Positions 6,257 through 30,894 are shown, numbered from the stretch's first letter. The stretch: DNA of 32,000 nucleotides from Gemmata obscuriglobus (GCF_008065095.1 NZ_CP042911.1:2520001-2552000), one strand, 5' to 3'. Notes: generated by a model not told the origin, from the letters alone. Numbers and translations: made by a program.

Positions 6257-6289
6257 CCCGCTCCCCGGTCACCCTTTTGAACACGATCC

Positions 6290-6324
6290 GACCCGCCGGG
6301 TGAGCGCCGCTCACCCGGCGGGTC
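6290..6324 (+). terminator. GC-rich hairpin downstream of the anti-sigma gene
   Basis: GACCCGCCGGGTGAGCG (6290-6306) and CGCTCACCCGGCGGGTC (6308-6324) are perfect reverse complements. The hairpin lies 34 nt after stop 6256 and has only a weak T tail (gatgcgttt). Confidence 0.5.
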
Positions 6325-6362
6325 GATGCGTTTAGATGGAAGACCCCGGAGGGACCGACATC

Positions 6363-7193
6363 ATGACACTTCGCGCGTTCGGGTTGGCGGTCGCGGTGTG
6401 CGCTTGCGCTCCGGCGCTCGGACAGGCGCAGCACGTTCTGCTTGCGGACAAGAAAACCGTTCACGGCTACCCGTATGGGCCGCGGGTCGCGCCCCCGTGG
6501 GGCTACCCGGGGCTGTACGGCGGGCCGTTCGTCGGGTACCCGGTGTTCCCGCGGTACTACAACAGTCTGTTCACGAACTACGAACCGCTCGGCCCCAACA
6601 TCGGGGTGTACTCGGGGTTCGGCTCTCCGGGCTTCGGGTACGGCTACCCGGGGTACCCCGGCTATTACGGCTTCCCGGGACGGATCGGCAACCAGTGGAC
6701 CAACGGGCTGAGCGCGTACGGCCCACCGGTGCCGGTGTACGGCCCGATCCCGGGCGTGTTCGGCAACAACGACCTCGTGCGGAACTACCGGGCGGCCCCG
6801 GGGATCGGTGGGTACGGGTGGATCGGCATTTACGCCGCGTCACCTCGCCCCCGCCGTCCGAACGTGTCCGTGTACCCGACGGTCGAGCGGGTCGGTTCGG
6901 CGCCCGCTTACGTCGAGACCGTGCCGGCCGCGCCGATTGCACGCCAGACCGCGTGCCTGGTGCTCTCGGTGAAGGTGCCGCAACCGACCGCCGAGGTGCT
7001 CGTTGACGGGCAGAAGACCGCGCAGACCGGTACCGACCGCATCTTCGAGTCGCCGCCGCTCGAAGCGGGCCAACCGTACCGGTACACCGTGACCGCGCGG
7101 TGGATCGAGCGCGGGCAAACGGTTGAGGTGACGCGCGAGGTCACCGGCAGCCCGGGCGAGGTGGTCCGGGTCGACTTCAGCACAGGGAAATAA
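6363..7193 (+). CDS. Secreted Gly/Tyr/Pro-rich protein with C-terminal TIGR03000 (Planctomycetes-specific) domain
   Basis: Track ORF starts at 6336. ATG 6363 has GGAGGG 9 nt upstream and gives the signal peptide MTLRAFGLAVAVCACAPALGQA. The C-terminus ACLVLSVKVPQPTAEVLVDGQKTAQTGTDRIFESPPLEAGQPYRYTVTARWIERGQTVEVTREVTGSPGEVVRVDF matches my memory of the TIGR03000 signature. Confidence 0.8.
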   Translation: MTLRAFGLAVAVCACAPALGQAQHVLLADKKTVHGYPYGPRVAPPWGYPGLYGGPFVGYPVFPRYYNSLFTNYEPLGPNIGVYSGFGSPGFGYGYPGYPGYYGFPGRIGNQWTNGLSAYGPPVPVYGPIPGVFGNNDLVRNYRAAPGIGGYGWIGIYAASPRPRRPNVSVYPTVERVGSAPAYVETVPAAPIARQTACLVLSVKVPQPTAEVLVDGQKTAQTGTDRIFESPPLEAGQPYRYTVTARWIERGQTVEVTREVTGSPGEVVRVDFSTGK

Positions 7194-7205
7194 GCCAAGA
7201 AGATC

Positions 7206-7367
7206 GGCCACAAAAAAGCACAAAGGGCACAAAAGAAAACCGAAGACAAAAGAGTGCGTTCAAAACACTTCTCTTCGTCTTCGGTTTTCTTTTGTGCCCT
7301 TTGTGCTTTTTTGTGGCCAACTCTCTTCTGTCTTTGTCTTCGGTTTTCCTTTGTGCTTTTTTGTGGC
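7206..7367. repeat. 42-bp perfect palindrome (arms 7206-7247 and 7277-7318) plus a third, shortened copy of the T-rich arm (7336-7367), between convergent genes
   Basis: The left arm GGCCACAAAAAAGCACAAAGGGCACAAAAGAAAACCGAAGAC is the exact reverse complement of gtcttcggttttcttttgtgccctttgtgcttttttgtggcc. The loop is 29 nt. The third copy gtcttcggttttcctttgtgcttttttgtggc lacks ~10 nt. The element is strikingly AT-rich for this sequence, and there is no T anywhere in 7206-7254. Confidence 0.9.
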
Positions 7368-7380
7368 TAATCCTGCTGTC

Positions 7381-8787
7381 CTAAAGAACCTTCTCGATCA
7401 GCTCGCCGTGAACATCGGTGAGCCGCATGTCACGGCCTCCGAACCGGTACGTCAGCTTCTTGTGATCGAATCCGAGCAGGTGCAGCGCGGTGGCGTGCAG
7501 GTCGTGGACCTGCACCTTGTCCTGAACCGCGTGGTAGCCGAAATCGTCCGTCGCGCCGACCACCGTTCCGCCCTTCGTACCGCCGCCGGCCATCCACATC
7601 GAGAACCCGAACGGGTTGTGGTCCCGACCGTCGGTCCCTTGCGCCATCGGGGTGCGCCCGAACTCGCCGCCCCAGATCACCAGGGTCTCGTTTAGCAGGC
7701 CCAACCGCTTCAGATCGGTCAACAACCCGGCGATGGGCTTGTCCACCGCTCGGGCGTTATCCTCGTGGCCCTTTTTGAGGTTCGCGTGCTGGTCCCAGCG
7801 GTCGTGCCCCAGGTTCTGACACAGCAACTCGACGAATCGCACGCCGCGCTGAACGAGCCGTCGGGCGAGGAGGCACTGCCGGCCGAACACTTCGGTCTTC
7901 TTGTCGTCAATGCCGTACAGCTTTTGCGTTTCTGTCGTTTCCTTCGAGAGGTCTGTAAGTTCGGGTACGGCCGTCTGCATCCGGAATGCGAGTTCGTAGT
8001 TAGCGATCGCCGCGTCGAGCGGGTCCGCGTCGCCGTACTTCTCTTTCGTCCCGGCGTCGAGCTTGCGGAGCAGGTCGCGCTTCGCCTTCTGTGTTTTCGC
8101 GCTCTCGGTCGGTGGGGCTATGTCCGCAACGGGCTGCGGGCCGTGTTTGAACACCGACCCCTGGTACGTTGCGGGCAAGAACCCGTTGCCGAAGCAGTCC
8201 GCGCCGCCCGGCGGGATCATACCGCTGCCCAGCACGACGAAACCCGGCAGGTCGCGGCACTCGCTGCCGAGCCCGTAGGTCGCCCAGGCGCCGAAACTCG
8301 GGCGCCCCTGGAGCCCGGAACCGCTGTGCCAGAAATAGTTGGCGTTGGTGTGTTCGGAGAAGTTCGCGACCATCGAGCGGATCACCGCGAGGTCGTCCGC
8401 GCACGCGCCGACGTGCGGGAACAGGTCGCTGACGGGTAGCCCGCTCTGGCCGTACTTCTTGAACTTCCACGGGCTGGCGAGCGTGTTGCCGACGTTGTTG
8501 AACTGGGTCGGCTCCGTCTTCCCGGGGAACGGCTTGCCGTGGTACTTCTCGAGCGCCGGCTTGGGGTCGAACGTGTCGATCTGGCTCGGCCCGCCGTCCA
8601 TGAACAGGAAGATCACCGACTTGGCCTTGGGGGCGAAGTGCGGCTTCTTGGGCGCCATCGGGTCGGCGCCCGGGGCGCGGGCGTCGGCCGCCCGCGTGTC
8701 ATCAGCAAGGAGGGCGGCCAGCGCCGCGGCACCGAACCCGTTGGCGGAGCGGAGCAGCAACTCGCGGCGCGAAAGTGGGACGTGCAT
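7381..8787 (-). CDS. DUF1501 domain protein (sulfatase/alkaline-phosphatase-like superfamily), Tat-type signal
   Basis: N-terminus MHVPLSRRELLLRSANGFGAAALAALLA. It has FLFMDGGPSQIDTFDPKP and C-terminal GGRDMRLTDVHGELIEKVL, which I recall as typical DUF1501 signatures. The ORF is 468 aa with high GC3. Confidence 0.9.
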   Translation of the reverse strand: MHVPLSRRELLLRSANGFGAAALAALLADDTRAADARAPGADPMAPKKPHFAPKAKSVIFLFMDGGPSQIDTFDPKPALEKYHGKPFPGKTEPTQFNNVGNTLASPWKFKKYGQSGLPVSDLFPHVGACADDLAVIRSMVANFSEHTNANYFWHSGSGLQGRPSFGAWATYGLGSECRDLPGFVVLGSGMIPPGGADCFGNGFLPATYQGSVFKHGPQPVADIAPPTESAKTQKAKRDLLRKLDAGTKEKYGDADPLDAAIANYELAFRMQTAVPELTDLSKETTETQKLYGIDDKKTEVFGRQCLLARRLVQRGVRFVELLCQNLGHDRWDQHANLKKGHEDNARAVDKPIAGLLTDLKRLGLLNETLVIWGGEFGRTPMAQGTDGRDHNPFGFSMWMAGGGTKGGTVVGATDDFGYHAVQDKVQVHDLHATALHLLGFDHKKLTYRFGGRDMRLTDVHGELIEKVL

Positions 8788-9087
8788 AGTGGAGGCGGGG
8801 TGGTTGATGGTGGGCGGCTCAGTGGCGGGAACGCCACTCTGGCGGGGCGAACGTGCGAGGCAGTAAACTCTGTTCGGGCAGCGCCCGGTACGGGTGTGGC
8901 GTCGTGGGCTGTTGCTTACATCCTAAACGCAGAGTGCCGAACGCCAAACAGCAAACTTGCGGTGCCAGCTTTGCGACTTCGTTGAAGACGTGACCATGAT
9001 GGCCAATTGAACGAGCCGCACCGGGCCGAACCGGTTGCGCCAGCGGTGGCAGTGCCGACAGCTTGGTCGAATGCAGGGGGAACCGAA

Positions 9088-9678
9088 ATGAGAGCGATCC
9101 TGTTTGTTGTGACCCTTTTCAGTGCGGTGGGGGCTTCGGCGGTCGGTTCGGATAAGCCGATCGCTCTCACCGGGCGCCGGGCGGCCGCTCGCGCCGCTCG
9201 GCAGGAGCATGTCGAACTCCTGCTCCGCCAGGCCCCGACTGGTGAGTGCGATTTCGTAGCCGCTGCGGCTGCCGTTCGGCGGCTGGCAGACGAAGCTGTG
9301 GCCGCGGGCGATCACGCAGCCGCGGTTCGCTGGCACGAGCAGTGGGTGGCGGCCGTCCGGAAATTCGACACCAAAGCGAATGCCGCACTCGCAATGGGGA
9401 CCGGAAGCGTCGGGCTTGTGGCCCATCGAGCCAAAGCGGCTCGAATCGAGGCGGAAGTCGATCTGATCCGGCGGCGGGGTGGCGGATCAGCGTCCCTGAT
9501 CGAACTGCTAAAAGAACGGGTGGCTCTGTGCGCCGAGTCCGAGAAGCTGGCCGCAAAGGTCATGGCAGTCAGCGGTCATGGACTGAAAGGCGATTATTTG
9601 GAAGCGAAGGTCGCCCGATTGGACGCGGAGGCCGAACTGGCGAGTGCTGAAGCGGACGCGAAGAAAGGTGGTAAGTGA
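9088..9678 (+). CDS. Hypothetical secreted Ala-rich helical protein (uncertain gene)
   Basis: Track ORF is 9007..9678. ATG 9088 is preceded by AGGGGGA and gives the signal-like MRAILFVVTLFSAVGASAVG. The C-terminal 60 aa look coiled-coil (LEAKVARLDAEAELASAEADAKK). Codon position 1 is G-rich (RNY-like), which supports this frame. However GC3 is only ~70% by hand count, lower than neighbouring genes. Confidence 0.45.
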   Translation: MRAILFVVTLFSAVGASAVGSDKPIALTGRRAAARAARQEHVELLLRQAPTGECDFVAAAAAVRRLADEAVAAGDHAAAVRWHEQWVAAVRKFDTKANAALAMGTGSVGLVAHRAKAARIEAEVDLIRRRGGGSASLIELLKERVALCAESEKLAAKVMAVSGHGLKGDYLEAKVARLDAEAELASAEADAKKGGK

Positions 9679-9995: not shown

Positions 9996-12923
9996 ATGAG
10001 TTCCGACGCGAACCTGACCCACGTCGTTCGACTGCTTCCGTCCCCACACGGCGCTCACCACGGCGACCCGGAACTGCTGGACCGGTACGTTCGGGAACGT
10101 GACCAGGACGCATTCGCGATCCTGGTCCGCCGATATGGCCCGCTGGTGTTCGGAGTCGCGCGCCGGCAACTGGCCGATCGGCACCGGTGCGAGGACGTGT
10201 TCCAGGCCACGTTCCTGGCCCTGGCCCGATCCGCCGCAAGGCTCGGCGGGCGCCCGGCTTTGACCAACTGGCTCTACACGGTTGCTCTTCGACTGGCCCG
10301 AAAGGTCCGTGCGCAGGAATTCCGGTCTAACACGGCCGAGAATGCCGAACCCGCGGACGCAGCATTCGAACGCGACCCGCTTGCCGAGATTACGGGACGC
10401 GAGCTTGTGCGGGTGGTCGACGACGAACTCGCGCGACTCCCTGAGCGGTTGCGGTTACCGATACTGCTGTGCTGTGTGCAGGGACTGTCGCGGGAAGAAG
10501 CCGCCCAGCGCCTCGGGTGGTCGCCCGGGTCGGTGAAAGGGAGGCTCGAGCGCGGGCGCCAGAAGCTCGCGGTCCGGTTGGCGGCCCGAGGGCTGGCGCC
10601 GTCGGCGGTGCTGCTCGCCCCGCTCGCCGCGGTCACCGTCCCGGCTGATCTCCTCGCCCGAACTGTTGCATCGGCGTTGGCCCCGTGGGCGCGGTCCGCA
10701 TCGCCCGCGGTAGCTGCGCTGGCCGCAGCCGGTATGCGTCGGCTGCTCCCGCCTGCTGTTCTTGCGGCTTGTTTTGTGACAGCCGTGACGGCCGGTGTGT
10801 TCGCCCTGATGGAAGAACGGGCCGCTCAGCCCTTGCCGCCGGCCGGCCCCGTGAAAGTGCCGCCGAAGACGGTTCTGGTGCCCGACGATCCGCTCCCGAC
10901 CGGTGCGACAGGGCGGTTCGGCTCGACCCGGTTCCGCCACCCGACGGAAATTAGCGAGCTGTGCGTGTCCGCCGACGGCAAATTCGCGGTTGCCAGCAGC
11001 GACAGGTATCCCAACGGCGCACACCGGGCTTACGACCTGAACACCGGTCGCGCGCTGTTCACCCTCGAAGGCTGGAACGGCGACCGATTCTTTACGGCGG
11101 TGGCAGTGTCGCCTGATGGAAGAACGTTGGCAACGAACCAGAACGGCACCCTTCGGCTCCACGACGCGGCTACCGGCAAAGAAAAGACGCGCATCAACTA
11201 CGTGGTGCCGGCGCCGGGTGTCAAAACGCGAGACTTCACGTTCCGAACCTCCAAGTTGCTCGTGTTCGCGCCGGACTGCACGCATGTGCTGATTGCTGCG
11301 GGCGACGGGAACGCGCTAGTGTTGGTCGATCCGGTGAAGACTGCAGAATTCGAATCCGTTCAGGTATCTCACACGTTCCCCCACAACCAGCTCGTTCATG
11401 CGGCTGCGTTCTCGCCCGACGGTAAACGCATGGTCGGAGGTGGAGAGGAGCAGGATAAGGGCGTGTACTTCGCCCGGCTGTGGAACGCGGAGACGGGAAA
11501 AGAACAGCACCGGCTATGGTTCGGAAAGGGCAAGATTCGCTGCGTGGCGTTTTCCCCCGACGGGGCCACCGTGGCCGTCGGGGGCGACGGCGAAAATGGT
11601 AAGGTCACGGTGACACTCTTCGAGGCCGCCACCGGCAAAGAGCGGTTGCAGCTTCCGTTCCCGAATACTGCGCGCGTGCGATCGGTTGCCTTTTCGCTGG
11701 ACGGCAAGACACTGGCCGCGTCCGGTAGCTCCTATTCCCCGGGCTTCGATTCGTTCTCGGGTGATGGCACCACTCGACTCTTCGAGGTCGCCACCGGTAA
11801 GGAGGCGCTCACGATCGACCGGACGGCCATTGGGCTCCGATTCGCGCCGGACGGCGGGGTACTCGTCGGGGCCGTTGCGAACGCCATTTACCGCTGGGAC
11901 ACAACCACGGGTAAGGCCCTCACCCCCGAAGGCCCGAACAGTCAGATCGAGTCCATTGCCGTAGCGCCCGACGGCTCGCGGATCGTCGCCCGCGAACTCG
12001 CCGGCGCGGCCCACGTTTGGAACGCCCGGTCCGGTAAGTACGTGCCGCGCCTGAGCGTCGGTTGGGGCTCCAGATCGGCTGTGAGCCCAGACGGACACTT
12101 GCTCGTCTGGCTCGAAGCCGACAAGACCGCAACGTTCACCAAGCCTTCGCTTCCGGGGCGTACGCTCACCGGCAGCCGATTGCGAACATTTGACTTGACG
12201 GCCGGTGCGTTCGTTGAACGGTTCGACGGGATCAAAGGCGGGATCAGCCGCGTATGTTTCACGGCCGATAGCAAGGCACTCGTTACGTCCGGCAGTTGGG
12301 GCACAGGCACGCGGTTTTGGGACGTGGCGACCGGTAAACTGGTGCGATCGTTTCTCGCTGACGAGAAAGAGCAACCGCACGGCACTTCGTGCTCGGCCCT
12401 ATCACCGAACGGGAAGATATTCGCGGATGCCACCTACAGCAGTCATTCGAGCGCGTCTGCCGTTTACGCGGTTCGACTTTGGGACACCGAGACAGGAAAG
12501 AAGTTGCACGACCTGTCGGGTCACACGGATCGCATCGGAGCAGTCGCGTTCTCTCCCGACGGCAAGTACCTCGTCACCGGCGAACCGCCCTACCCGTTCA
12601 AGTGGGAGCGGAGACCGCGCGCCGGTCACGTGTTCGTGTGGGAGGTGGCGACGGGGCGGCGGGTCGCGTCGCTGCCGATCGAGATCACCGCGGTCGCGTT
12701 CGCACCGGACGGTAAGGCGCTGGCGGTCGCGGTGGCGGACGGCACGATCCAGTTGTGGGACGCGGGGACGTGGCAGTTGAGCGGCGAGTTCCCGGGGCCG
12801 CGCGAGTGGGTAACGGCCCTGACGTTCGGGCCGGACGGTCGGTTGTTCTCGGGGGCGACGGACGCCGAAATTCTGGCGTGGGACCTGCGGGCGGCGAAAC
12901 GTCCGTCCGCGGACCGGAAGTGA
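9996..12923 (+). CDS. ECF sigma factor fused to a transmembrane segment and C-terminal WD40 beta-propeller repeats
   Basis: Region 2 reads DAFAILVRRYGPLVFGVARRQL...EDVFQATFLALAR. Region 4 reads LRLPILLCCVQGLSREEAAQRLGWSPGSVKGRLERGRQKL. Hydrophobic helices include LLPPAVLAACFVTAVTAGVFALM. At least 8 WD-like units carry (V/A)AFSPDGK cores and ...LWD endings. The architecture matches the planctomycetal ECF class with TM+WD40 extensions reported for Gemmata. Confidence 0.9.
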   Translation: MSSDANLTHVVRLLPSPHGAHHGDPELLDRYVRERDQDAFAILVRRYGPLVFGVARRQLADRHRCEDVFQATFLALARSAARLGGRPALTNWLYTVALRLARKVRAQEFRSNTAENAEPADAAFERDPLAEITGRELVRVVDDELARLPERLRLPILLCCVQGLSREEAAQRLGWSPGSVKGRLERGRQKLAVRLAARGLAPSAVLLAPLAAVTVPADLLARTVASALAPWARSASPAVAALAAAGMRRLLPPAVLAACFVTAVTAGVFALMEERAAQPLPPAGPVKVPPKTVLVPDDPLPTGATGRFGSTRFRHPTEISELCVSADGKFAVASSDRYPNGAHRAYDLNTGRALFTLEGWNGDRFFTAVAVSPDGRTLATNQNGTLRLHDAATGKEKTRINYVVPAPGVKTRDFTFRTSKLLVFAPDCTHVLIAAGDGNALVLVDPVKTAEFESVQVSHTFPHNQLVHAAAFSPDGKRMVGGGEEQDKGVYFARLWNAETGKEQHRLWFGKGKIRCVAFSPDGATVAVGGDGENGKVTVTLFEAATGKERLQLPFPNTARVRSVAFSLDGKTLAASGSSYSPGFDSFSGDGTTRLFEVATGKEALTIDRTAIGLRFAPDGGVLVGAVANAIYRWDTTTGKALTPEGPNSQIESIAVAPDGSRIVARELAGAAHVWNARSGKYVPRLSVGWGSRSAVSPDGHLLVWLEADKTATFTKPSLPGRTLTGSRLRTFDLTAGAFVERFDGIKGGISRVCFTADSKALVTSGSWGTGTRFWDVATGKLVRSFLADEKEQPHGTSCSALSPNGKIFADATYSSHSSASAVYAVRLWDTETGKKLHDLSGHTDRIGAVAFSPDGKYLVTGEPPYPFKWERRPRAGHVFVWEVATGRRVASLPIEITAVAFAPDGKALAVAVADGTIQLWDAGTWQLSGEFPGPREWVTALTFGPDGRLFSGATDAEILAWDLRAAKRPSADRK

Positions 12924-12997: not shown

Positions 12998-14731
12998 TCA
13001 CTTACCCTTGTCGATGTCGATCACCTCGCCGCCGTTGCGGGTGAACGCGGCCTTCAGCGTCTTCTCGTCGATGGTCGTGCTGATCGCACGCACCGAGCCG
13101 TCGCCCATGCCGACCTGGAACACCTTCTGGCCGCCCGGGGGCACGATCTTCGGCAGCGGCTTTTTCGGGTCGAACGGGAAGTCGTCCGGCTTGGCCCACG
13201 GTACCGAGTCCTCCGTCTCGATCAGCGCGATGGTGTTCGACAGGCCGTCGGTGAAGTGGGCGAACGTGAGCTTCATCTTGGCGGTCGGGTCGAACGCCGC
13301 GCCCGGGCCGCTGATCCCGCGGTAGTTGGTCGTCCCCCACTCAAGATTCGCCGGCAGCGTTGCGCTGGGCGACGTGAACACCCTGATGCGCACCTGCGAC
13401 CACTGCTTGTTGTTCGCACTGTCCCAGGGCTCGTCCAGCTTGAACTTGTTGTACAGGTTGTTTTGCTCGATGTACGGCAGGATCGCCACCCGCCAGCTCA
13501 GGATCGGCTTGCCGTTCTTGTCCACGATGTCCTGCGGCAGGTGCCCGTTGGCGTCGTGGTAGCTGTGGATCGCCAGCATGAGCTGTTTCAGGTTGTTCTG
13601 GCTCTGCGTGCGGGCGGCGGCGGTGCGCACCTTGCCCACCGCCGGTGCCACCGCTGCCGCGCCGAACGCCGACATGCCGCTCAGGGTGACGAGCACCTCT
13701 TTCGGGAGCGGCACCGCGACGGCCAGCTCCGCCTTATCGCGGGCGATCAGCTTCGGGTCGGTGAGCGTTTCGTCCAGCCGCTCGATGGCGCCCAGCGCGA
13801 ACACGGCGGCGAGCGCCTCCGGCAACTCTTCGGGGCCGCGCGGGGTCTTGATCTTCGGGTCGTAGAACTTCTCTTCGAGTTCCTTTTTGGTCTTCGCCAG
13901 CTCCTTGCGGCCCAGGTCCGCGAGCGCCTTGACGGCCTTTTCGGCTTCCCGCGCCGCGGCGTCGTCGGCGTACCCGGCCCGCACGTCGAACCGCGCGTCC
14001 TTGCCGAGGTCGACGGCCAGTGTCAGTTGCTTGGCCTTGAGGATCGGCAGGGCTTCGGGGGGCACGTCCTTGAAGGAGTCGGGCGGGATCGGCAGCGCGG
14101 AGAGGTCCGCGGACGCGACCACCGCCTTCGCGGGCGAGGCGGCCAGCTTGAGCGCGTGAGCCATCGGGCCGTCCTTCGCGGGGGCCTTGGCGAGGTACGC
14201 GTCCAGCGAGCCCTCGGACCCGATCACGATGTGCTTGTCGTCCGGGAAATAGAGATCGACCGGCATGTCGGGGCTGCGGTACACGGTCTTCCCGTTCACC
14301 TTCTCGGTGGTGTGGTTGGGCAGGTACGTCTTCAGCACCTTCGCCGGGTCGAACGCGGCGGAGAACGCCAGCACCCCGACCGCGTGCGGCCGCTTCTTGT
14401 CGTCGATCAGGACGAACGCGGTGCCGCGCGAGATCGTGGACGGGGCCGGGACGAACTGCCGGTCGAGTTCGGCCAGCGCTTTCGGCCCGGCCTTCTCCCA
14501 CGTTTTGCGGAACCCCTCCATCACCTCGTTCTTCCACAGATCCGCAAGCCGGACGTGGACGAAGCCGGTGGCGTCGGCGGGGACCAGTGCGAGGTCCGCA
14601 GGCAAGTCGGCCGCCGGTTGGGCGGCGCGCGCCGCCCCGGCCTCGGGCCGGACCTCAGGGTGTAGCAGCGCCACTGTTGCGGCCAGCGCCGCGACGACGG
14701 CGAACCCGCCGGCCCGGAGTGTGAATCGCAT
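12998..14731 (-). CDS. Atypical DUF1559 protein: Sec-type signal plus ~370-aa unknown N-terminal domain plus DUF1559 domain, no prepilin leader
   Basis: Signal is MRFTLRAGGFAVVAALAATVALL. DUF1559 core is VGKVRTAAARTQSQNNLKQLMLAIHSYHDANGHLPQ...ILSWRVAILPYIEQNNLYNKFKLDEPWDS...FTDGLSNTIALIE...GMGDGSVRAIS. There is no G-F-T-L-I-E-type methylation motif or hydrophobic pilin helix. Confidence 0.85.
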   Translation of the reverse strand: MRFTLRAGGFAVVAALAATVALLHPEVRPEAGAARAAQPAADLPADLALVPADATGFVHVRLADLWKNEVMEGFRKTWEKAGPKALAELDRQFVPAPSTISRGTAFVLIDDKKRPHAVGVLAFSAAFDPAKVLKTYLPNHTTEKVNGKTVYRSPDMPVDLYFPDDKHIVIGSEGSLDAYLAKAPAKDGPMAHALKLAASPAKAVVASADLSALPIPPDSFKDVPPEALPILKAKQLTLAVDLGKDARFDVRAGYADDAAAREAEKAVKALADLGRKELAKTKKELEEKFYDPKIKTPRGPEELPEALAAVFALGAIERLDETLTDPKLIARDKAELAVAVPLPKEVLVTLSGMSAFGAAAVAPAVGKVRTAAARTQSQNNLKQLMLAIHSYHDANGHLPQDIVDKNGKPILSWRVAILPYIEQNNLYNKFKLDEPWDSANNKQWSQVRIRVFTSPSATLPANLEWGTTNYRGISGPGAAFDPTAKMKLTFAHFTDGLSNTIALIETEDSVPWAKPDDFPFDPKKPLPKIVPPGGQKVFQVGMGDGSVRAISTTIDEKTLKAAFTRNGGEVIDIDKGK

Positions 14732-14825
14732 AGGAGGAACTCCTCGAGGAGAGCGTTCCGAGTTCCGGCGGGCCGGTCAGCACGCCGCCGGTGCTCAGCT
14801 TGGAACCCGAAATCTGGGACTTGAG

Positions 14826-14849
14826 ACGACCGCCCGAATGGGCGGTCGT
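14826..14849 (-). terminator. Hairpin downstream of the upstream DUF1559 paralog
   Basis: ACGACCGCCC (14826-14835), loop gaat, GGGCGGTCGT (14840-14849) form a perfect 10-bp stem. It lies in the 206-nt gap between the two paralogs and has no clear U tract. Confidence 0.4.
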
Positions 14850-14937
14850 GGTTGAGCCACGCGTTTTAATGAGCTGCGATCGTCGTGCCGGGGCGTGCCC
14901 CATTCACGGGCGGTCGGGGCTCGTCCCCGGCCGGCGC

Positions 14938-23418: not shown

Positions 23419-23512
23419 GAGCGTGAGCCTCATACTACTCCGTTAATTCGCCACAAATAATTACAGTGTCGCTACTTATGGCGATCTGCACCTACAGGCC
23501 CGTGCACCCGCA

Positions 23513-23537
23513 ATGGGTTCAAATCCCAGCGATTCTG
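23513..23537 (+). other. tRNA T-arm/3'-acceptor-like fragment (possible integration-site remnant); not a functional tRNA
   Basis: atGGGTTCAAATCCCagcgattctg resembles a T stem-loop (GGG/TTCAAAT/CCC) plus a 3' acceptor strand. No matching 5' acceptor, D arm or anticodon arm can be folded from the 75 nt upstream. Confidence 0.25.
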
Positions 23538-23739
23538 GCGAGTCCGTTCACGAGAGCAGCAAACATCCCGCTGGGGCAGTGAGCATTCCATTTGACTCAA
23601 GTCCAGATCCTACAAGGTGTTCCGTCGAGATGTGTCCTGGTGGCGTGTACATAACACGTTGTAAAATAAGCAGTTGTGGCGAGGTAACGGAGTAGTACTC
23701 AAGCGGGTTGGAAAAATACGCCTCATTGAACAACGTCTA

Positions 23740-23768
23740 TTGACTTGGAAGCCGCACAAAACAACAAT
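23740..23768 (+). promoter_or_regulatory. Candidate sigma-70-type promoter in the AT-rich leader of the toxin gene
   Basis: TTGACT (23740-23745), a 17-nt spacer, AACAAT (23763-23768). Planctomycetal promoter rules are poorly known, so this is weak. Confidence 0.25.
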
Positions 23769-23925
23769 CCTCTCTTCAATCACAGCTCAACTCTCCCGAA
23801 TCGCGGCGATTGTCCGTGTCAGACTGGATCGAATGCTGATCGCGTTGGCAATTGATTAGCAATTTCTCTGGTTGTTTCTTTCGCACAGTCGTCTGCCTGA
23901 AGCCTTTCGCACGGAGTACGCGCCC

Positions 23926-26900
23926 ATGCTGAGCGAAGCCTTGCGCCGGTTCGTCCGCCGTCTCTTGGCCCGGTCCCCGTTCCGCGAGCCCTTCGGGCGG
24001 TCGTCGCGTGTTGTCACCCGCCACACCGGCCTGCCGTACCGGTTCCGGCTGGCGGGGCTCGAGGCGATCGAGAGTCGGGACCTTCCCGGCTCGCTGCTCG
24101 CCCTCGAGTCCCTCCCGACGTTTCAGGACCTCAGTTTCCCCGCGCCGCCCGCGGGCGTTCCGGCCCTCACCTCCTGGTTGGGTGACAATCCGGTCGGCAG
24201 CGGTTCGGCTTCTTCAGCCGCCGAAAGCTCAACCCCTGCCGTCCTTGACTTCTCCGGGAGCGACTCCGACCGTGGGGGCTCTGGCGCATCGAGCGATGAG
24301 CCCCTGTCGGGTTTCCACAGCACCGTTGATGACGATTTGGGGATCTCCTGGGACGTTCCGTTCGCTGCGCTGGGCGAAATGCCGCCCGCCTCAGCCCCGA
24401 ACCCGAATGGTACGGCCGGCGGTCCCGCGGGGTTCGGGGAGAGCCCGACCGGAGGGTCGTCAGGCAGCGGGTCGGGAGGCGGCGGACTGGAAGGTGAAGG
24501 AGGTGGCACCGGAGGAACCGGGGGAACGGGTGGTGGTTCGGTTGGCGGGCCGGTGGGCGGCGGTCTGGAAGGCGAAGGAGGTGGCACCGGAGGAAGCGGA
24601 GGGACGCCGGGGGGCGAAACGGGAGGTGGTGGAGAAACGGGCGGCGGGGAGACGGGAGGTGGCGGGGAGACGGGCGGCGGGGAGACGGGAGGTGGCGGGG
24701 AGACGGGCGGCGGAGAAACGGGCGGCAGCGGTGGTACCGGCGGCGGCACTTCGTCGACCGGCGTCTGGATCGAAGCCGACAACGATTACGTTTACCGCGG
24801 CGATACCGTTACGTTCTACGTCCAGACATCGCTCACCCCCGAGCCGGTGTACACCTCGATCGAGTGGGATTTTGACTACCAGGCAGGCAACTTCCAGGCC
24901 GACGTTTCCGGTACCGACGAGTTCGCTCCACACACGTTCACAAGCGTGGGGAATGCCACGGTTGCCGCGCGGTTGACCAACGCCCAAAGTGTTGAGGTCG
25001 TCACGACGGCTGTCACGGTCCACCACGAACCGCCCGTCCTCACCGTCCCGGAAAACCTCACGGTCGTTGCCGGCAACACCAAGACGCTGACCGTAACAGC
25101 CGACACCGATGTCGCCATCACCGGGGTTGAGTGGTGGGTCGCCCTCGACGGCTGGGAGTACGAGCAGGTCTCGGACATGACCACGCTCGCGGCGGACTAC
25201 GAGTTCGAGACCTACGGCGACTACGACTTCTGGGTCCAGGTAACCGACGCCAACGGCGAGGTGGCCGAGAGCGGGTTCACCGTCAAGGCGACCAACGACA
25301 CGCCGGACGGGTACGCGTTCTACCGGACCGCGACCGGTGTCGTCAACGCGACGGTCGATGAGGGGAGCGTGGTCACGTTCGTGGTCACCGACCTCGACCG
25401 CGAACTCGATGTCGAGAACACCGACTCGCTGACCGTGGAGGTCGATTGGTACGGGACCGGAGAGTACGACATCGTCAACGACGGCGACTGGACGTTCAAC
25501 CGGGAACTCAAAACGGTCACGTTCGACACCCCGTACGAAGACAACCCGGAGGGCGGAACCGTCTGGCACGCCAAGGTCCGGGTAACCGACGATTGGGGGG
25601 CGGCTACCGACGACGCCGTTGATGTCCACGTCCGCAACGTGGCCCCGACCGCAACGGTTCAGGCGGGCACGGTCATCTCGACCGTGGCCACGGGCGGCCA
25701 GGATGTGCGTGTGCTGTACGACCAGGAGTTGCTCTCGTTCGAGAACATCGTCGAACCGTCCGAGGCCGACCTCGAACAGATGGAGTTCTTCTGGATAGTC
25801 GACGGGACCCGGCTGGGGAACACGGCCGCCGTTCCGCTACCCGACTACACGGTGGCCCGGCCGCACATCGTCGAAGCGTACATGAAGGACAAGGACGGCG
25901 GCGAGACGCCACACGTCACCTTCAAACTCGTGGTCGCACCGGCGCCCATCCCGGCTGCGCATGCGATGGGCATGCCGGAGGGGACTGGGGACCCCAACGA
26001 CCCGAACGAAGGGGATTTCTTCACCACCGATTCGGGCCTCTTGGTCGAGCCGCAGTTGGGCGACGGACTGCCAAGCGCGACCGTGTTCGGCAAGTTTATC
26101 CCGACCGACATGACTGTTGACAATTACCTCCAGTACGCGAGCTGGCCCATCGTCCGCCGGTCGGTCGGGGTCGGCCAGGGGTTCAGTGTCAAGTTCACCT
26201 ACGATCCGGAGAGCCTAGCGTTCGCTGCCGCGCACGGGTACACCCTCCGGTACCGGTACGCGATCGACGTGCAGTACCCGTCCGACGGGCACGGGAGCGG
26301 GCCGCTGCCGCCGCACCAGTACACCAAGACCGCGAGCGACACCATCTCGGTCTCCGGTCAGCCGGAGGACCGGGTCATCATCGTGACGGTGATCCCGGAG
26401 ATGCTGAGCGGCGGCACCGTGGTGCGGTCGGCCGGGCCGCACCAAGTGATCGCCACCACCCCGCGGTCGCAGTCCACCTGGGATCAGGCGGTGGACCTGT
26501 GGAAGATGGTCCGGGACCTGGCCCCGCAGCTCGGCAGCGCGGCCGCCAACCTGTTCACGTCGCTGTCCGGGAGCGGGTTCACGACCCTGATGAGCAACCT
26601 GGAGGCCGGGCTGACCGGGGCGCTCAGCGACTTCGTCAGCGGGTTCCAGACGACCAGCAAGAAGGCGTTCTTCGAGTGGCTCGGGGCGGGCTCGACCACC
26701 CTTCTGTCGAACCTGGCGAACGCCAACTTCAACGAGTGGGAGGACATCCAGGCGTTCCTGCTCGGGTACGCCGGGCTGACGTGGGACAACGTGCAGGCGG
26801 TGATGCTGCAGGAGCTGGGTGCCGGGAACGTGGCGGCGGTGACGAAGATCTACGACGACTACTTCGCAGCCGAGTCGGACACGTCGAGCGCCCGATCGCT

Positions 26901-28821
26901 GATGGCGTTCGTCAATAAACTCGATCCCAACCTGGTCGAGGGGCTGAAGACCAAGGCGATGGAGCAGATCACGATCGCGGCGGGGCGAGCCGTGGCCCAG
27001 GCGGCGTCCATGTTCCTGCCGGGTGCGGGTGCGATCCGCGGGCTGTACAACGCCCTTCAGTGGGCGCTCGACAACCGGACCCAGATGGGGGACATGTTCA
27101 CCAAGATCGTGGACAGCCTGAACGCGCTGGCGGCGGGCAACGCGGGCAACTTCCGGGCGGAGCTGTTGGGGGCCATGAACGCATCGCTCGGGCCGCTGAT
27201 CGGTCTGGCGGCGCAGCAGTTCGGTCTGAACAAGCTGCGGGACGAACTGAAGCGTCTGACCGAGTACGTGCCGCAGCGGGTGGACAAGCTGCTGCGGGAC
27301 CAGGTGGCGGCCGTGGCCAAGGGGCTGGGTGGCGGGGTGATCACGGGGGCCGAATCCGGCAAACTAACATCGACGCAATTCACGTTCGCGTACAAGGGGA
27401 AGAGCTACAAGCTGGTGCCGGTGGAGGCGGGAACCGCGTCGCAGTTGAAGATCATCCACCAATCGGAGGGGAACAAGGTCCACGTGTTCACGGCCCAGGA
27501 CTTCGACGGGCCTGCTCTGGCCAAGTACCAGGAGGTGATGGCGGCCGAGGTGGCGGTGCGTGCGGCGGCGAGCGGTCCGACGCGAGTGGCCATCAAGCAG
27601 AACGTTAACGGTGCAGGCACCACCGCGCCGCAGCCGAAGGCGAAGTTCGCGGATCTGAAAGCGAAGCAGGCGGCCCTGGACACCAAGCTGGCGGACCTGA
27701 CGGCGTACCTGCAAGCGAACGGGTGCAAGTACCTGAACGCGGGTTGCTTCGCGGCCGGGACCAAGCTGCTGACGCGGCGCGGGTGGGTGGCGGTCGAGTT
27801 ACTGGGGATCGGGGACGAGGTTGCCAGCCGCACCGAGCACGACCTGACTGGGCCGGTGGAGTGGAAGGCGGTGGAGGACACGTTCCGCCGCATGGGCCGG
27901 GTGCTGCACCTGCACTTCGCGGGCGGGGAGCTGATCCGCACGACGCCGGAGCACCCGTTCTGGGTGGACGGGAAGGGGTGGACCGCGGCCGGGTCACTGG
28001 CCGCGGGGGACCGGATCGCGACCTTGTCAGGCGAGTGGGTGCCCATCGCCGAGGTGTTCGACACCCAGGAATGGGAGCCGGTGTACAACCTGCGGGTGGC
28101 CGACCACCACACCTACTTCGTCGGCGACGACAACTGGGGGTTCGCCGCCTGGGCGCACAATGCGTACGTTGTCGTGCACAAGAAGGTCGGCAAGAAATAT
28201 GTTTGGAGTGTTGAGGACGAGAGTAAGCAGACACCTGCTGCATCTGTAGATCGTTACGTTCGCGATGTATTTGGTGCGAGAGCGACCTTCGCCACACAGG
28301 ACATTGCTCTCAAAGTGCGTGACCAGCAGCAAAAGGCGGAGGAGAAAGTAACGGCTCTATCTACCGATGACGGAGATCGTTTTGAGTTCTTAGCGCGAAT
28401 CTCTCACGCACCAAGCCGGCATTCCGAACTCATTTTCAGGCCGGATGGAACTATTTGGCAGGAAATCGATTTTGAAGTCAACGGCCGCATTTACGAAACT
28501 GGAATTTCGCTTGGGTCGAAACAGGAGCAACTCATCCGCTATGGTATCATTGCGCGCGCTCGAGGAATGACCGTTGGCGTCATCTTCGGGCCACGAGCAT
28601 CATCGACAACAGTGCGAACTTACTACGCTACACTCTCCGTGCCATTTAGCAATGCACTTATTCAAGAAGAGATGCCGCCGGGAGTAAGTATCTCGGATAG
28701 TCAGATTGTCGCCTCGTATTTTACCACATTTGAAGGTCGGACTTATGGTTTTCCCGCGCCAATAATAGGTCAAAATTCAATGCTCATTTGGCCTACTGAC
28801 TGGGAAAGGACGACTAACTGA
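23926..28821 (+). CDS. Polymorphic-toxin-like multidomain protein: Arg-rich LExLExR header, Gly-rich repeats, PKD-like Ig domains, helical domain, Hint autoprotease domain, variable C-terminal tip
   Basis: Track ORF starts at TTG 23872. ATG 23926 has GGAG 9 nt upstream. PKD-like ends include VRVTDDWGAATDDAVDVHVRNVAPTA. The Hint domain and tip are listed separately. Composition is host-like (about 65% GC) up to nt ~28160. Confidence 0.85.
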   Translation: MLSEALRRFVRRLLARSPFREPFGRSSRVVTRHTGLPYRFRLAGLEAIESRDLPGSLLALESLPTFQDLSFPAPPAGVPALTSWLGDNPVGSGSASSAAESSTPAVLDFSGSDSDRGGSGASSDEPLSGFHSTVDDDLGISWDVPFAALGEMPPASAPNPNGTAGGPAGFGESPTGGSSGSGSGGGGLEGEGGGTGGTGGTGGGSVGGPVGGGLEGEGGGTGGSGGTPGGETGGGGETGGGETGGGGETGGGETGGGGETGGGETGGSGGTGGGTSSTGVWIEADNDYVYRGDTVTFYVQTSLTPEPVYTSIEWDFDYQAGNFQADVSGTDEFAPHTFTSVGNATVAARLTNAQSVEVVTTAVTVHHEPPVLTVPENLTVVAGNTKTLTVTADTDVAITGVEWWVALDGWEYEQVSDMTTLAADYEFETYGDYDFWVQVTDANGEVAESGFTVKATNDTPDGYAFYRTATGVVNATVDEGSVVTFVVTDLDRELDVENTDSLTVEVDWYGTGEYDIVNDGDWTFNRELKTVTFDTPYEDNPEGGTVWHAKVRVTDDWGAATDDAVDVHVRNVAPTATVQAGTVISTVATGGQDVRVLYDQELLSFENIVEPSEADLEQMEFFWIVDGTRLGNTAAVPLPDYTVARPHIVEAYMKDKDGGETPHVTFKLVVAPAPIPAAHAMGMPEGTGDPNDPNEGDFFTTDSGLLVEPQLGDGLPSATVFGKFIPTDMTVDNYLQYASWPIVRRSVGVGQGFSVKFTYDPESLAFAAAHGYTLRYRYAIDVQYPSDGHGSGPLPPHQYTKTASDTISVSGQPEDRVIIVTVIPEMLSGGTVVRSAGPHQVIATTPRSQSTWDQAVDLWKMVRDLAPQLGSAAANLFTSLSGSGFTTLMSNLEAGLTGALSDFVSGFQTTSKKAFFEWLGAGSTTLLSNLANANFNEWEDIQAFLLGYAGLTWDNVQAVMLQELGAGNVAAVTKIYDDYFAAESDTSSARSLMAFVNKLDPNLVEGLKTKAMEQITIAAGRAVAQAASMFLPGAGAIRGLYNALQWALDNRTQMGDMFTKIVDSLNALAAGNAGNFRAELLGAMNASLGPLIGLAAQQFGLNKLRDELKRLTEYVPQRVDKLLRDQVAAVAKGLGGGVITGAESGKLTSTQFTFAYKGKSYKLVPVEAGTASQLKIIHQSEGNKVHVFTAQDFDGPALAKYQEVMAAEVAVRAAASGPTRVAIKQNVNGAGTTAPQPKAKFADLKAKQAALDTKLADLTAYLQANGCKYLNAGCFAAGTKLLTRRGWVAVELLGIGDEVASRTEHDLTGPVEWKAVEDTFRRMGRVLHLHFAGGELIRTTPEHPFWVDGKGWTAAGSLAAGDRIATLSGEWVPIAEVFDTQEWEPVYNLRVADHHTYFVGDDNWGFAAWAHNAYVVVHKKVGKKYVWSVEDESKQTPAASVDRYVRDVFGARATFATQDIALKVRDQQQKAEEKVTALSTDDGDRFEFLARISHAPSRHSELIFRPDGTIWQEIDFEVNGRIYETGISLGSKQEQLIRYGIIARARGMTVGVIFGPRASSTTVRTYYATLSVPFSNALIQEEMPPGVSISDSQIVASYFTTFEGRTYGFPAPIIGQNSMLIWPTDWERTTN
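24616..24726 (+). repeat. 33-bp coding tandem repeat (ETGGGG-ETGGG) about 3.4 copies, inside a ~330-bp Gly-rich tract
   Basis: The sequence reads gaaacgggaggtggtgga gaaacgggcggcggg gagacgggaggtggcggg gagacgggcggcggg and so on. Just upstream is a 75-bp-spaced duplication encoding GGLEGEGGGTGG(T/S)G at ~24481 and ~24556. Confidence 0.9.
27745..28161 (+). other. Hint (Hedgehog/intein-type) pre-toxin autoprotease domain
   Basis: CFAAGTKLLTRRGWVAVELLGIGDEV...ELIRTTPEHPFWVDGKGW...GDRIATL...PVYNLRVADHHTYFVGDDNWGFAAWAHN. It has the N-terminal Cys (27745-27747), a TxxH block (TTPEH) and a terminal His-Asn (28156-28161). The +1 residue is Ala. Confidence 0.85.
28162..28818 (+). other. 219-aa low-GC C-terminal tip (putative toxin domain of unassigned family)
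   Basis: Hand counts of 60-nt lines give ~65% GC at 28081-28140, versus ~48% at 28201-28260 and ~42% at 28741-28800. The position directly after a Hint domain fits a toxin tip. I recognise no catalytic motif with confidence. Confidence 0.6.
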
Positions 28822-29456
28822 TGAGCTCGCGCTGGTGTTGGTTTGGATACCCGGCGCCGGGGCGGTCACTCAATCCGTCAGCAGGTTTGGCCGCGCTCGG
28901 CAACTCATTCCGTCCCGATCCGCCATCCGTTTATACAATGGCGGCCGAAAAAAATCCGGACTCTCCCGATATCGGTTGGCTCCGGCGAACCCGACTGAGT
29001 GAGCCGGTTTCGCTCGCGCTCCGCCATCGGCTCTCGATGGGAGAGAACATTAAAGCTTTTCTTCGATTTGAAGGGGTAGAATCGGGCTTTTACCAAACAG
29101 CCGCGGAATTCTACTCGTTCCACTCTGCCCGGAAACCCGAGCTGATCTTGGTGTACTCAACTCACGAGACGAGCTTCCAGCAACAGATTATGCTTCGATA
29201 CGTGCGAATATTTGCATCTGCCGCCAATGCCGCGTACTTGATACGAACGAATGAGATATGGAACCTCGATGAACTATTCATATTGTCCGAGCCGGTGCCT
29301 GAACTGCGATTCCCAGATCCGGCATTCGGGCACGGGGTGTACGAGGTCTGCGTCAACGCCGCCAACGGCGGGTTGAAACCGATCGGATTAGAAGCGGTAC
29401 CTGGCGAGCCGGTTGAAGCGGGCTTCATCAGTTTTGCCGCACTACGACCGGCATGA
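28821..29456 (+). CDS. Putative cognate immunity protein (211 aa, family unassigned)
   Basis: The ATG overlaps the toxin stop (cTGATGa). Low GC matches the tip (~47% at 29161-29220). No signal peptide. The alternative start ATG 28938 is also possible. The call rests on context only. Confidence 0.55.
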   Translation: MSSRWCWFGYPAPGRSLNPSAGLAALGNSFRPDPPSVYTMAAEKNPDSPDIGWLRRTRLSEPVSLALRHRLSMGENIKAFLRFEGVESGFYQTAAEFYSFHSARKPELILVYSTHETSFQQQIMLRYVRIFASAANAAYLIRTNEIWNLDELFILSEPVPELRFPDPAFGHGVYEVCVNAANGGLKPIGLEAVPGEPVEAGFISFAALRPA

Positions 29457-29668
29457 ACGAGATAGAGGTAAGCGTTCACAGTTGATGAAGTTGGCAATCA
29501 CCAGATTGCGTAGAAGAATTTTCGTCATCACTTTTCTGTTAGCTCGACGACGTATCCGGGCAGCCGCGAGCACCGATCGGTGTTCGCGGCCGCGGTCGCG
29601 GCGCGTTCGTGCTGTCCCGAGCTATACCCGATGAGGATTGGTCGGCCGGGCGGGACTAAGAACCGCAG

Positions 29669-29917
29669 TTACGCTTCACCGAACGCGGGCGCGTCGCTCA
29701 CGACGAACTGGACGGCCTGCGATTGAATCGGTCGCTGCTCGGCCACGTGTTCGGCCGGATGCCCGATCCGCTCTATGTGGCGGACCGCGCTGGCGACGTG
29801 TTCGGCCCCGGCATTGGGGTCGACATTGATGGTGGCGAACTAGGCCCGCAACCGCTCGATCACCTCATCCGGTGACAGATAAGATTGCCCGTCCGGTAGT
29901 CCTAGCCAATGAGTCAT
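29669..29917 (-). pseudogene. Small ORF interrupted by an in-frame TAG (possible decayed gene)
   Basis: The reverse strand reads MTHWLGLPDGQSYLSPDEVIERLRA, then TAG at 29842-29840. It continues in the same frame as FATINVDPNAGAEHVASAVRHIERIGHPAEHVAEQRPIQSQAVQFVVSDAPAFGEA, with stop at 29671-29669. No family was recognised. Confidence 0.25.
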
Positions 29918-30848
29918 TCGCCTTGTCTTCTAAACAGCAGCTCATTCTGCGATCAGAAAGCGTTCAGCGACGGGATACAGCGCGTTGCCCAGTGGCCCGT
30001 TACTTCCCGCTGTATCAACGAAGAGAGTCGCCGTTCGCACCGGCCGTCAAGGTTCGCGTTCAGCGCGGCCAAGTCGTGTAACAGATCGCAGGACGGATCG
30101 GTTTTGAACGCGGCTTCGGTCTCGTCGCGGGTGCGGACCAATGCCTCTCGTGCGAGGGTGGGAACGGCTGCCAACTGAACCCAGTAACTCTGCGCGAACG
30201 AACAGCGACCCCTTCAGCCCTTGCTGGTATCGAAGGGCGTTGTGGTGGGACCACGAGAGCTTCGCGACATCATCTGTACCGCACCGGCTTCACACCTCGA
30301 TTGTCTCGCGTATCACAGGGTCTTCTTTACAGATCCCTTCAGCAACGGCATTTTCGGCAAGGTTGAAATGCGTTGATCCGGACTCACCATGGAGCGCGTT
30401 GCCATCAGGTTGGTAGGGGGCCGCAGCGGGCGCTACACGAATCATGTGGCCGAGGCCCCAGGTGCAGCCAGCCTGCCAGGGTTAGTGACAGAGGAGTGGG
30501 TGCTCGCGGCACGAGCGACATTCGCGGACGGGACGGGCGATGGGGTATGAACTGACGTTCCGCGGGCGATTCGCTGCCTATTCGCTGGTACGGCATTACC
30601 ACCGAATCGCGCCCTCAAAACCCGGACAATCGCTCCCGGTGAGCTGATCTGGGCTTCCGCGTAACGCGAAACGTCTGCTGTAACACGTTTCTGCGGCGAC
30701 TCTTACGGCGGGTGCTGGTTCGGCACAGGGAACACCCGTCTCGGGCGAAAACTGGTGCGGTCGCTTCACCCGAGGCTTCTCAAACGGCCAGAACTACCAC
30801 GCAGGGGGAATTGGCGATGTGCGTGAAATCGATGCCGCGTCCGAGTCA

Positions 30849-30885
30849 CAGAGGGGCGTTTCACCTCCGAGTTCACGCCCCTCTG
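30849..30885 (-). terminator. Hairpin 10 nt downstream of the glycoside-hydrolase-like gene
   Basis: CAGAGGGGCGT (30849-30859), a 15-nt loop, ACGCCCCTCTG (30875-30885). There is no clear U tract on the minus transcript. Confidence 0.45.
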
Positions 30886-30894
30886 TTTGGAGGA

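Follow-up and report, generated by a model that had tools for sequence, protein, structure and literature searches.

A predicted pre-toxin-Hint polymorphic toxin/immunity module in Gemmata obscuriglobus

We analysed a 32,000-nt stretch of the Gemmata obscuriglobus genome (NZ_CP042911.1:2520001-2552000; hereafter the window, with positions counted from its first letter). It contains a gene for a protein of about 1630 aa that ends in a Hint domain and a 219-aa C-terminal tip, and the stop codon of this gene overlaps the start of a 211-aa open reading frame (ORF). The locus is probably a genuine and intact pre-toxin-Hint polymorphic toxin/immunity module. The part of the protein that precedes the tip, here called the scaffold, is conserved between relatives and the tip is not; the GC content of third codon positions (GC3) falls abruptly just inside the tip; and homologues of the tip are followed by homologues of the 211-aa ORF. 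Cleavage, toxicity, nuclease activity, immunity and export are predicted properties of the module. The coordinates of the features are collected in Table 1.

Scaffold conservation and tip replacement

A locus scan covering one genome per species gave one related locus only, L002 of Gemmata algarum JC673. Its scaffold showed 90% protein identity to the scaffold in the window, and its DNA aligned with window positions 18463-23432 and 23699-28163 at 86-90% identity. Over the toxin gene the DNA identity was 90% across 24544-28163. The two loci are syntenic, since the DNA alignment spans both and the same IMPDH/HemN-like neighbours are present. DNA homology ended at nt 28163, two bases past the Hint domain. 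After the Hint end (...AWAHN) the G. algarum protein goes on with ACEIAGPRRK... and has a tip of about 230 aa that is unrelated to that of the window; the next ORF, of 238 aa, is also different. A metagenomic relative (P0001) showed 43% identity over the full scaffold, aligned as far as ...HNAY and then diverged into a 127-aa tip.

Both relatives thus gave the pattern of a polymorphic toxin, with a conserved body and a C-terminal domain that changes from one close relative to the next. The initial annotation had read the locus as a swapped toxin/immunity cassette on a resident scaffold of host GC, and had proposed a search of related genomes for a conserved scaffold with a varying tip and downstream gene. 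That variation was seen in G. algarum and P0001, and the swap is supported by these comparisons together with the tip-partner linkage described below.

Downstream of its toxin gene, the G. algarum locus carries at least three orphan modules, each a Hint fragment that is followed by a new tip of low GC and then by a small ORF, and the different tips carry different partners. One partner (L002:13739-14296) matched DUF2947 with an E value of 4e-15, which makes DUF2947 a candidate immunity family. The orphan Hint fragments were 84-92% identical to the DNA of window 27668-28176, and a Hint-coding repeat in the orphans would explain tip replacement by homologous recombination. The array of orphan cassettes as a whole spans L002 10112-15222. 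Standalone tip-immunity cassettes were found in G. algarum (at least three), in Tuwongella immobilis (L047 and L050) and in a metagenome (L048).

Linkage of the tip and its downstream gene

The initial annotation had reported a 219-aa tip ending in TGATG, where the 211-aa ORF begins, and this was borne out by the ORF coordinates and the sequence. Positions 28813-28830 read ACTAACTGATGAGCTCGC, in which the stop TGA (28819-28821) and the ATG (28821-28823) share one base (A).

Eight places were examined, and in each of them the gene immediately after the tip homologue was homologous to the 211-aa ORF. Partners were picked by position alone in five loci (L047, L048, L049, L050 and L051); they were 208-219 aa long and aligned with the ORF of the window from Met1, and the lengths over all eight pairs were 208-236 aa. 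The T. immobilis partner was 28% identical to the 211-aa ORF (E 1e-15). Comparison by hhalign of a partner profile from the window and L047 with one from L048 and L050 gave a probability of 93.8% (E 1.7e-7, 178 columns). Hidden Markov models (HMMs) of the tip core and the partner were run against every six-frame ORF in the loci fetched, and they recovered two L050 pairs that were outside model building, with the tip at 3235-3603 (E 2e-26) and its partner at 3603-4313 (E 5e-19), and the tip at 8231-8851 (E 4e-30) and its partner at 8851-9561 (E 1e-21). Half of the pairs (4/8) showed a stop/start overlap, as TGATG, TAATG (twice) or ATGA. The partner gave no significant match in Pfam, NCBIfam, PHROGs, PDB or plasmids (tblastn).

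Such strict adjacency, over three kinds of carrier, is the genetic signature expected of a cognate immunity gene, and it also shows the 211-aa ORF to be a genuine gene.

Hint domain

The Hint domain matched PF07591 (PT-HINT) over residues 1300-1430 with an E value of 3e-16 and 60.3 bits, against a gathering cutoff of 27.7. No other domain in the 1649-aa protein rose above threshold in Pfam, and NCBIfam added nothing. The translation placed Cys1292 at nt 27745-27747, the TxxH block at T1358-P-E-H1361 and H1429-N1430 at the end of the domain (nt 28161), with Ala1431 at the +1 position. A Hint domain with every catalytic position present, as first annotated, is therefore borne out by both the PF07591 score and the translated residues. 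Cys1, the block-B His and the His-Asn end, then Ala-Tyr, were the same in the window protein and in P0001 (43% identical), and the catalytic positions were also conserved in G. algarum. The +1/+2 residues after His-Asn among the relatives were AY, AC, TY, VY or AK.

It had also been claimed that the Ala at +1 makes protein splicing impossible. This was too strong, because type A bacterial intein-like (BIL) domains, which have a His-Asn end and no +1 nucleophile, show mostly N- or C-terminal cleavage but can splice weakly by aminolysis (PMC4031507; PMC7664689). Release of the tip has been proposed for HINT peptidases set directly before toxin domains (PMC3482391), and by analogy release by Asn cyclisation is the expected outcome here. 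A true (mobile) intein was rejected because position +1 holds Ala, which leaves no nucleophile there, and because the 'C-extein' varies, the post-Hint sequences of orthologues being unrelated.

The first 11 codons of the tip (28162-28195) encode AYVVVHKKVGK and keep a host-like GC3. The sequence AY(V/T)V directly after His-Asn recurs in unrelated carriers (VYTV in P0006, AYTV in P0021), and tip residues 2-19 were modelled by AlphaFold2 (AF2) as a confident beta-hairpin. This segment may be a conserved linker or cleavage-site context.

Base composition across the junction

The GC content was 0.667 in the window, 0.670 in the scaffold, 0.496 in the tip and 0.561 in the downstream ORF. No other 657-nt stretch in the 32 kb is as poor in GC as the tip (z = -4.9, with windows outside the locus as the reference). 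It is the third codon positions that shift: GC3 is about 0.90 in the 340 codons that precede the break and 0.46 beyond it. Four GC values counted by hand in the initial annotation were exact (0.650, 0.483, 0.417 and 0.467), and the GC cliff that it described is real and far beyond chance. However, the cliff had been placed exactly at the Hint/tip junction, and the maximum-likelihood GC3 changepoint was at codon 1441 (nt 28195), 11 codons or about 33 nt past the end of the Hint domain. The host-like GC3 of these first codons after His-Asn puts the practical recombination breakpoint just inside the tip.

G. algarum and P0001 showed the same post-Hint drop, with GC3 of 0.80-0.91 in scaffolds and Hint fragments and 0.43-0.60 in tips and partners. 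The closest cassette, T. immobilis P0005 with its partner, had a GC3 of 0.44-0.48, under that of its own flanks (0.62-0.69). The exceptions, at or above their surroundings, were two T. immobilis pairs in L050 (GC3 0.68-0.74) and L051 14-4139, where the toxin core and partner on a DUF6531-RHS protein had a GC3 of 0.80-0.83 (tip 0.80). Given the normal high GC of the L051 tip, not all members of the family lie in low-GC DNA. Most cassettes examined were near 50% GC, in hosts of differing GC, and the composition pattern is better matched by a mobile pool that is shared than by one transfer. A GC contrast of this sort between core and tip has long been known in Rhs proteins.

The tip family

An exhaustive HMMER scan of 1.84 billion cluster representatives (50% clustering, E <= 1e-3) found 18 unannotated relatives of the tip, all labelled 'hypothetical'. 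The best was P0005, a 187-aa protein of T. immobilis with 43% identity (E 4e-28). The domain lies at the extreme C-terminus after PT-HINT in P0006, P0020 and P0021, ends the 1754-aa protein P0018, and in P0010 follows DUF6531 and RHS repeats, behind an RHS-core-like terminal segment (...NPLVDVDVLGL). Some relatives are standalone cassettes. Neither the tip nor the 211-aa ORF had any match in word-indexed homology searches, and the tip had none in Pfam, NCBIfam or PDB sequences, in plasmids by tblastn, or in the viral and metagenome locus scans. The earlier view that both the tip and the ORF were unassignable and might be new held in that no named family matched; however, neither is a singleton, each belonging to an unannotated family.

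The contig of P0006 (L048) carries an array of PT-HINT modules, in which the other tips were a weak match to MafB19-deaminase, a known toxin family, and DUF3990, and one partner weakly matched SMI1_KNR4, a known immunity family. T. immobilis L047 also holds an Endonuclea_NS_2 gene. Judged by its position and company, the tip domain appears to behave as a polymorphic-toxin warhead.

In L050 (Tuwongella immobilis MBLW1, LR593887.1), positions 3235-9561 hold three copies of the tip-immunity cassette of the window within 7 kb. These adjoin an ankyrin/SMI1_KNR4 gene and a stray Hint fragment, and two of the pairs have the TAATG overlap.

Predicted fold and possible activity of the tip

A single-sequence AlphaFold model of the tip was uninformative, with a predicted local distance difference test (pLDDT) of 33. 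With the 18-sequence alignment, AF2 gave a pLDDT of 73.9 (85-93 over residues 40-160) and a predicted template modelling score of 0.70. The elements of this model were, as helices (H) and strands (E), H46-64, H70-82, E86-92, E98-106, E109-114, H121-133, E137-142 and H148-159, and their order corresponds to a predicted alpha-beta-beta-beta-alpha-beta core.

In the model, the conserved residues of the tip lie where they would match the catalytic placements of PD-(D/E)xK nucleases, with the invariant D103 and E112 in the fitting strands. If strands 98-106 and 109-114 pair as a hairpin, in the register that we infer, D103 and E112 would be cross-strand neighbours. The conserved residues follow one another as G...E, ID, E, K, Q, in parallel to the signature of Tox-REase-7 ('GxxxE, IxD, ExK, Q'), a family tied to HINT, RHS and Planctomycetes (PMC3482391). 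Restriction and other endonucleases were over-represented among the sub-threshold Foldseek matches, and about a dozen of the top 50 in BFVD were named restriction or other endonucleases.

A number of results weigh against a nuclease. The residue two after E112 is an invariant Gly and the invariant Lys stands at E+8, so that the canonical ExK lysine is replaced. Foldseek with the tip model found nothing significant in PDB (best E 0.41; Ecl18kI, AgeI and BsaWI were among many unrelated entries) or in BFVD (best E 0.017). A tip profile against PDB matched only segments of the SRP54 P-loop and the IS607 recombinase, at non-significant E values of 0.15-1.1, and no Pfam, NCBIfam or PHROGs model matched the 17-18 tip family members searched. 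The structural check proposed at the outset, Foldseek on an AlphaFold model, gave a predicted order of elements that fits restriction endonucleases (REases) and no significant structural match. The nuclease assignment draws on topology and motif order only, and we regard a PD-(D/E)xK nuclease of the REase fold with a displaced lysine as slightly favoured and no more, because all direct tests were non-significant.

It is possible, at a clearly lower probability, that the pair is toxin and immunity protein and that the tip is something other than a PD-(D/E)xK nuclease, such as a nucleotide-dependent enzyme, an RNase with a different fold or a protein with an entirely new activity. The invariant strand-loop-helix motif E-x-G-x-S-x-x-(G/S)-K-x-x-Q could be a loop that binds phosphate or a nucleotide; the best of the PDB profile matches (E 0.15) puts this motif on the SRP54 Walker-A loop, and the second (E 0.65) is the E-x-G-S-G...R-P-x-L segment of the IS607 serine recombinase. 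The absence of a significant match to any known nuclease family and the position of the lysine outside ExK would also suit such a tip. However, no conserved Ser/Thr follows directly on the lysine, and a core of about 105 aa is too small for a P-loop NTPase. The three conserved acidic residues lie on alpha1, beta2 and beta3, the very elements that carry them in the REase fold, and the named structural matches below threshold were mostly endonucleases.

Putative delivery scaffold

The motif ...RFRLxGLExxExR..PGSLLAL.SLPTF was the only N-terminal motif common to the three full-length relatives. The N-terminal region had no match in Pfam even at E<=10; an N-terminal Pfam motif of the 'Planctomycete extracellular' type was considered, but it was not reported at that threshold and hence is not claimed. 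The tandem repeats that follow consist of 15/18-nt units and a 78-nt duplication, and are shorter in G. algarum and absent (gapped) in P0001. The beta-rich region of the window itself gave only sub-threshold Ig-like matches in Pfam, and in a metagenome scan the scaffold found nothing but PKD-repeat look-alikes that matched just this part. The pre-Hint region had no Pfam match and no PDB sequence match, and from its composition it is expected to be alpha-helical.

Three results count against the reading of the locus as a toxin module that is delivered and exchanged. No hydrophobic signal peptide was visible in the scaffold sequence. No trafficking domain of type V, type VI or type VII secretion systems (T5SS, T6SS, T7SS), nor RHS, PAAR, VgrG, TPS or LXG, was found in the scaffold with Pfam and NCBIfam, or with PDB for the pre-Hint region. 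Finally, a search of the downstream part of the window (29457-30894) by tblastn and tblastx turned up neither orphan pieces of a Hint domain nor traces of the G. algarum cassettes. RHS/YD and TPS/FHA repeats and PAAR/VgrG and LXG/WXG domains were absent from the window protein at E<=1 (Pfam, NCBIfam). PT-HINT is the sole Pfam/NCBIfam domain of the protein, which thus shows no secretion or trafficking module of the kind that marks a polymorphic toxin system. The scaffold is Gemmataceae-restricted and lacks a recognisable secretion module, and this lack is the least conventional aspect of the locus.

A bolder proposal, which we hold tentatively and consider doubtful, is that the scaffold serves a Gemmataceae-specific route of toxin export or presentation that bypasses the Sec signal peptide, T5SS, T6SS, T7SS and Tc/RHS, and that the tip is in addition a new catalytic variant (a displaced-lysine PD-(D/E)xK enzyme or a phosphate-loop activity) countered by a new immunity fold.

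The protein could also be a non-antagonistic surface protein, for example an adhesin or a protein of kin recognition or signalling, in which the Hint-released variable domain and its partner serve recognition. PKD-like repeats with a Gly-rich spacer are typical of adhesins, and no known toxin family matches the tip. We consider this unlikely. The tip domain also occurs on RHS proteins and in cassette arrays, neighbouring cassettes weakly match MafB19-deaminase and SMI1_KNR4, another array has Endonuclea_NS_2, and strict one-to-one linkage to a small partner with translational coupling is the toxin-immunity pattern (PMC3482391).

That the GC cliff and the tip reflect an assembly chimera or a decaying pseudogene remnant is very improbable: an abrupt compositional break within one ORF and 1.4 kb downstream (29457-30894) without a long ORF would fit this, but the reading frame is intact across the junction, the tip and partner match their homologues over the full length, the partner's Met1 included, and an assembly artefact was rejected because the same break, at ...HN(A/V/T)(Y/C), recurs in three independent assemblies.

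Proposed mechanism

For a polymorphic toxin/immunity module, the protein would be an exported or surface-displayed delivery scaffold, ordered as a conserved N-terminus, a Gly-rich spacer, PKD-like repeats, the unnamed conserved region and the type-A intein-like Hint domain. Thioester formation at Cys1292 and cyclisation of Asn1430 would cut the chain after His-Asn and free the 219-aa tip, starting with Ala1431. The tip would act as a metal-dependent PD-(D/E)xK nuclease, with E75, D103 and E112 as putative metal ligands and the lysine displaced to K120. The 211-aa gene would be translationally coupled to the toxin through its start in the stop codon, and the predicted immunity protein that it encodes would protect the producer and its kin by binding the tip and blocking it. 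Together, the tip and the immunity gene may have come as a cassette from a pool at about 50% GC, whose members would be exchanged by homologous recombination inside the conserved Hint-coding DNA, the recombination handle carried by the orphan cassettes.

Gene calls and surroundings

Two starts are available for the toxin gene. The G. algarum orthologue begins MFSEALRR and aligns with the window protein at M19 (LSEALRR following), which makes ATG 23926 the likelier start, and the true start is probably this ATG rather than TTG 23872. The upstream neighbours are housekeeping genes, for IMP dehydrogenase (IMPDH) and a HemN/HemW-like radical-SAM protein. No tRNA or Rfam family was found flanking the cassette, and promoter and terminator scans at the locus were no better than chance.

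Upstream of the toxin gene, positions 23433-23697 are a 265-nt intergenic insertion relative to the G. algarum locus, with a GC of 0.51. It has 31-nt inverted repeats at its ends (84% complementary) and CTCA on either side, and because of these repeats and the flanking CTCA it looks like a miniature inverted-repeat transposable element with a 4-bp target-site duplication. Downstream of the 211-aa ORF, the 1.4 kb at 29457-30894 has a GC of 0.605 and a longest ORF of 91 aa at most, despite the high-GC genome. This stretch showed no similarity to the G. algarum cassettes or to any of the fetched loci, though orphan cassettes occupy that position in G. algarum. It may consist of decayed cassettes or of non-coding DNA.

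Table 1. Features of the predicted module in the window, orphan modules of G. algarum JC673 (L002) and conserved residues of the tip (tip numbering)
Feature	Position	Strand	Details
Mechanical ORF, 1649 aa	23872..28821	+	Start TTG 23872; ORF list
Predicted polymorphic toxin gene, ATG-started version	23926..28821	+	Start is M19 of the mechanical ORF
Conserved N-terminal region (...RFRLAGLEAIESRDLPGSLLALESLPTF...)	23926..24130	+	Kept in P0001 and G. algarum
Gly/Glu/Thr-rich low-complexity tandem repeats, in-frame	24467..24744	+	Repeat families D1-D3
Beta-rich PKD/Ig-like repeat region	24769..25970	+	Weak PF18911 PKD_4 match in P0001
Conserved pre-Hint region, family unnamed, about 430 aa	26440..27744	+	Strong conservation with P0001
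PT-HINT / type-A bacterial-intein-like domain, predicted self-cleaving	27745..28161	+	PF07591 and residues read from translation
219-aa variable C-terminal tip, candidate toxin	28162..28818	+	GC 0.496, GC3 about 0.46
Conserved tip core, tip residues 66-165	28357..28656	+	Alignments of the tip family, AF2 model
Candidate cognate immunity gene, 211 aa	28821..29456	+	ATG overlaps toxin stop (TGATG)
Orphan module	L002:11315-11788		Partner 11760-12236
Orphan module	L002:12735-13745		Partner 13739-14296, matches DUF2947 (E 4e-15)
Orphan module	L002:14484-14789		Partner 14773-15222
Tip residues, near-invariant	G71, E75		Helix before sheet
Tip residue, near-invariant	E89		Beta1
Tip residue, invariant	D103		Beta2
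Tip residues, invariant	E112, G114		Beta3
Tip residue, invariant	S116		Loop after beta3
Tip residue, invariant	K120		Start of helix following the beta3 loop
Tip residue, near-invariant	Q123		Helix begun at K120
Tip residue, near-invariant	R134		

Significance and comparison with known systems

The general picture of polymorphic toxin systems is unchanged by this module. What it adds is a previously unnamed candidate toxin domain family with at least 18 members at 50% clustering, found on Hint proteins, on RHS proteins and in orphan cassettes, and an equally unnamed candidate immunity family defined by strict adjacency. The pair formed by G. algarum and the window is a clean natural tip replacement with its breakpoint mapped to about 30 nt, and it is useful for studying Hint-coding repeats as recombination handles. 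The initial annotation had called interbacterial antagonism little studied in this phylum. Antagonism there has so far been predicted from genomes only, and the module offers concrete items for it; however, polymorphic toxins had already been catalogued in silico with Planctomycetes among the lineages (Zhang et al. 2012, PMC3482391).

Compared with PT-HINT polymorphic toxins (PMC3482391; PF07591), the module has the same arrangement, with the Hint domain right before a variable tip and a predicted immunity gene directly downstream, and standalone cassettes, which allow a tip to be replaced, occur in related genomes. In contrast to them (PMC3482391), its tip and immunity families are not in Pfam/NCBIfam, and its scaffold is without the type II secretion system signal peptide, TPS/FHA, LXG/WXG, RHS or TcdB/TcaC.

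A GC-rich conserved body with a GC-poor variable tip and immunity gene is likewise found in Rhs and CdiA systems with orphan arrays, and, as there, the orphan modules of the G. algarum array retain a conserved coding piece as a recombination handle. One relative of the window tip is itself borne by an RHS protein (P0010). Unlike Rhs/CdiA, the window lacks RHS/YD and filamentous-haemagglutinin repeats as well as any PAAR, VgrG or CdiB partner, and release is predicted to occur via Hint and not by an Rhs aspartyl autoprotease or VENN-type demarcation.

Type A BIL domains were reportedly described by Amitai in 2003 and Dassa in 2004. The Hint domain of the window resembles them in its Cys1, TxxH and His-Asn end and in having no +1 nucleophile (PMC4031507). 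They sit in variable secreted proteins and their cleavage products dominate; the window Hint domain, which has Ala at +1, is predicted to cleave.

The tip resembles Tox-REase-7 and other Tox-REase domains (PF15649 and others) in its residue order (G..E, I-D, E, K, Q), in its predicted alpha-beta-beta-beta-alpha-beta core and in its occurrence with HINT, with RHS and in Planctomycetes. It differs from them in that its lysine stands 8 residues after the Glu and not 2, with an invariant Gly and Ser between, and Tox-REase models gave no score against any member of the tip family even at E<=10. The module is ordinary in kind, and its novelty lies in its members: a candidate toxin domain that has no name yet and is probably a nuclease, a candidate immunity family likewise without a name, and the scaffold.

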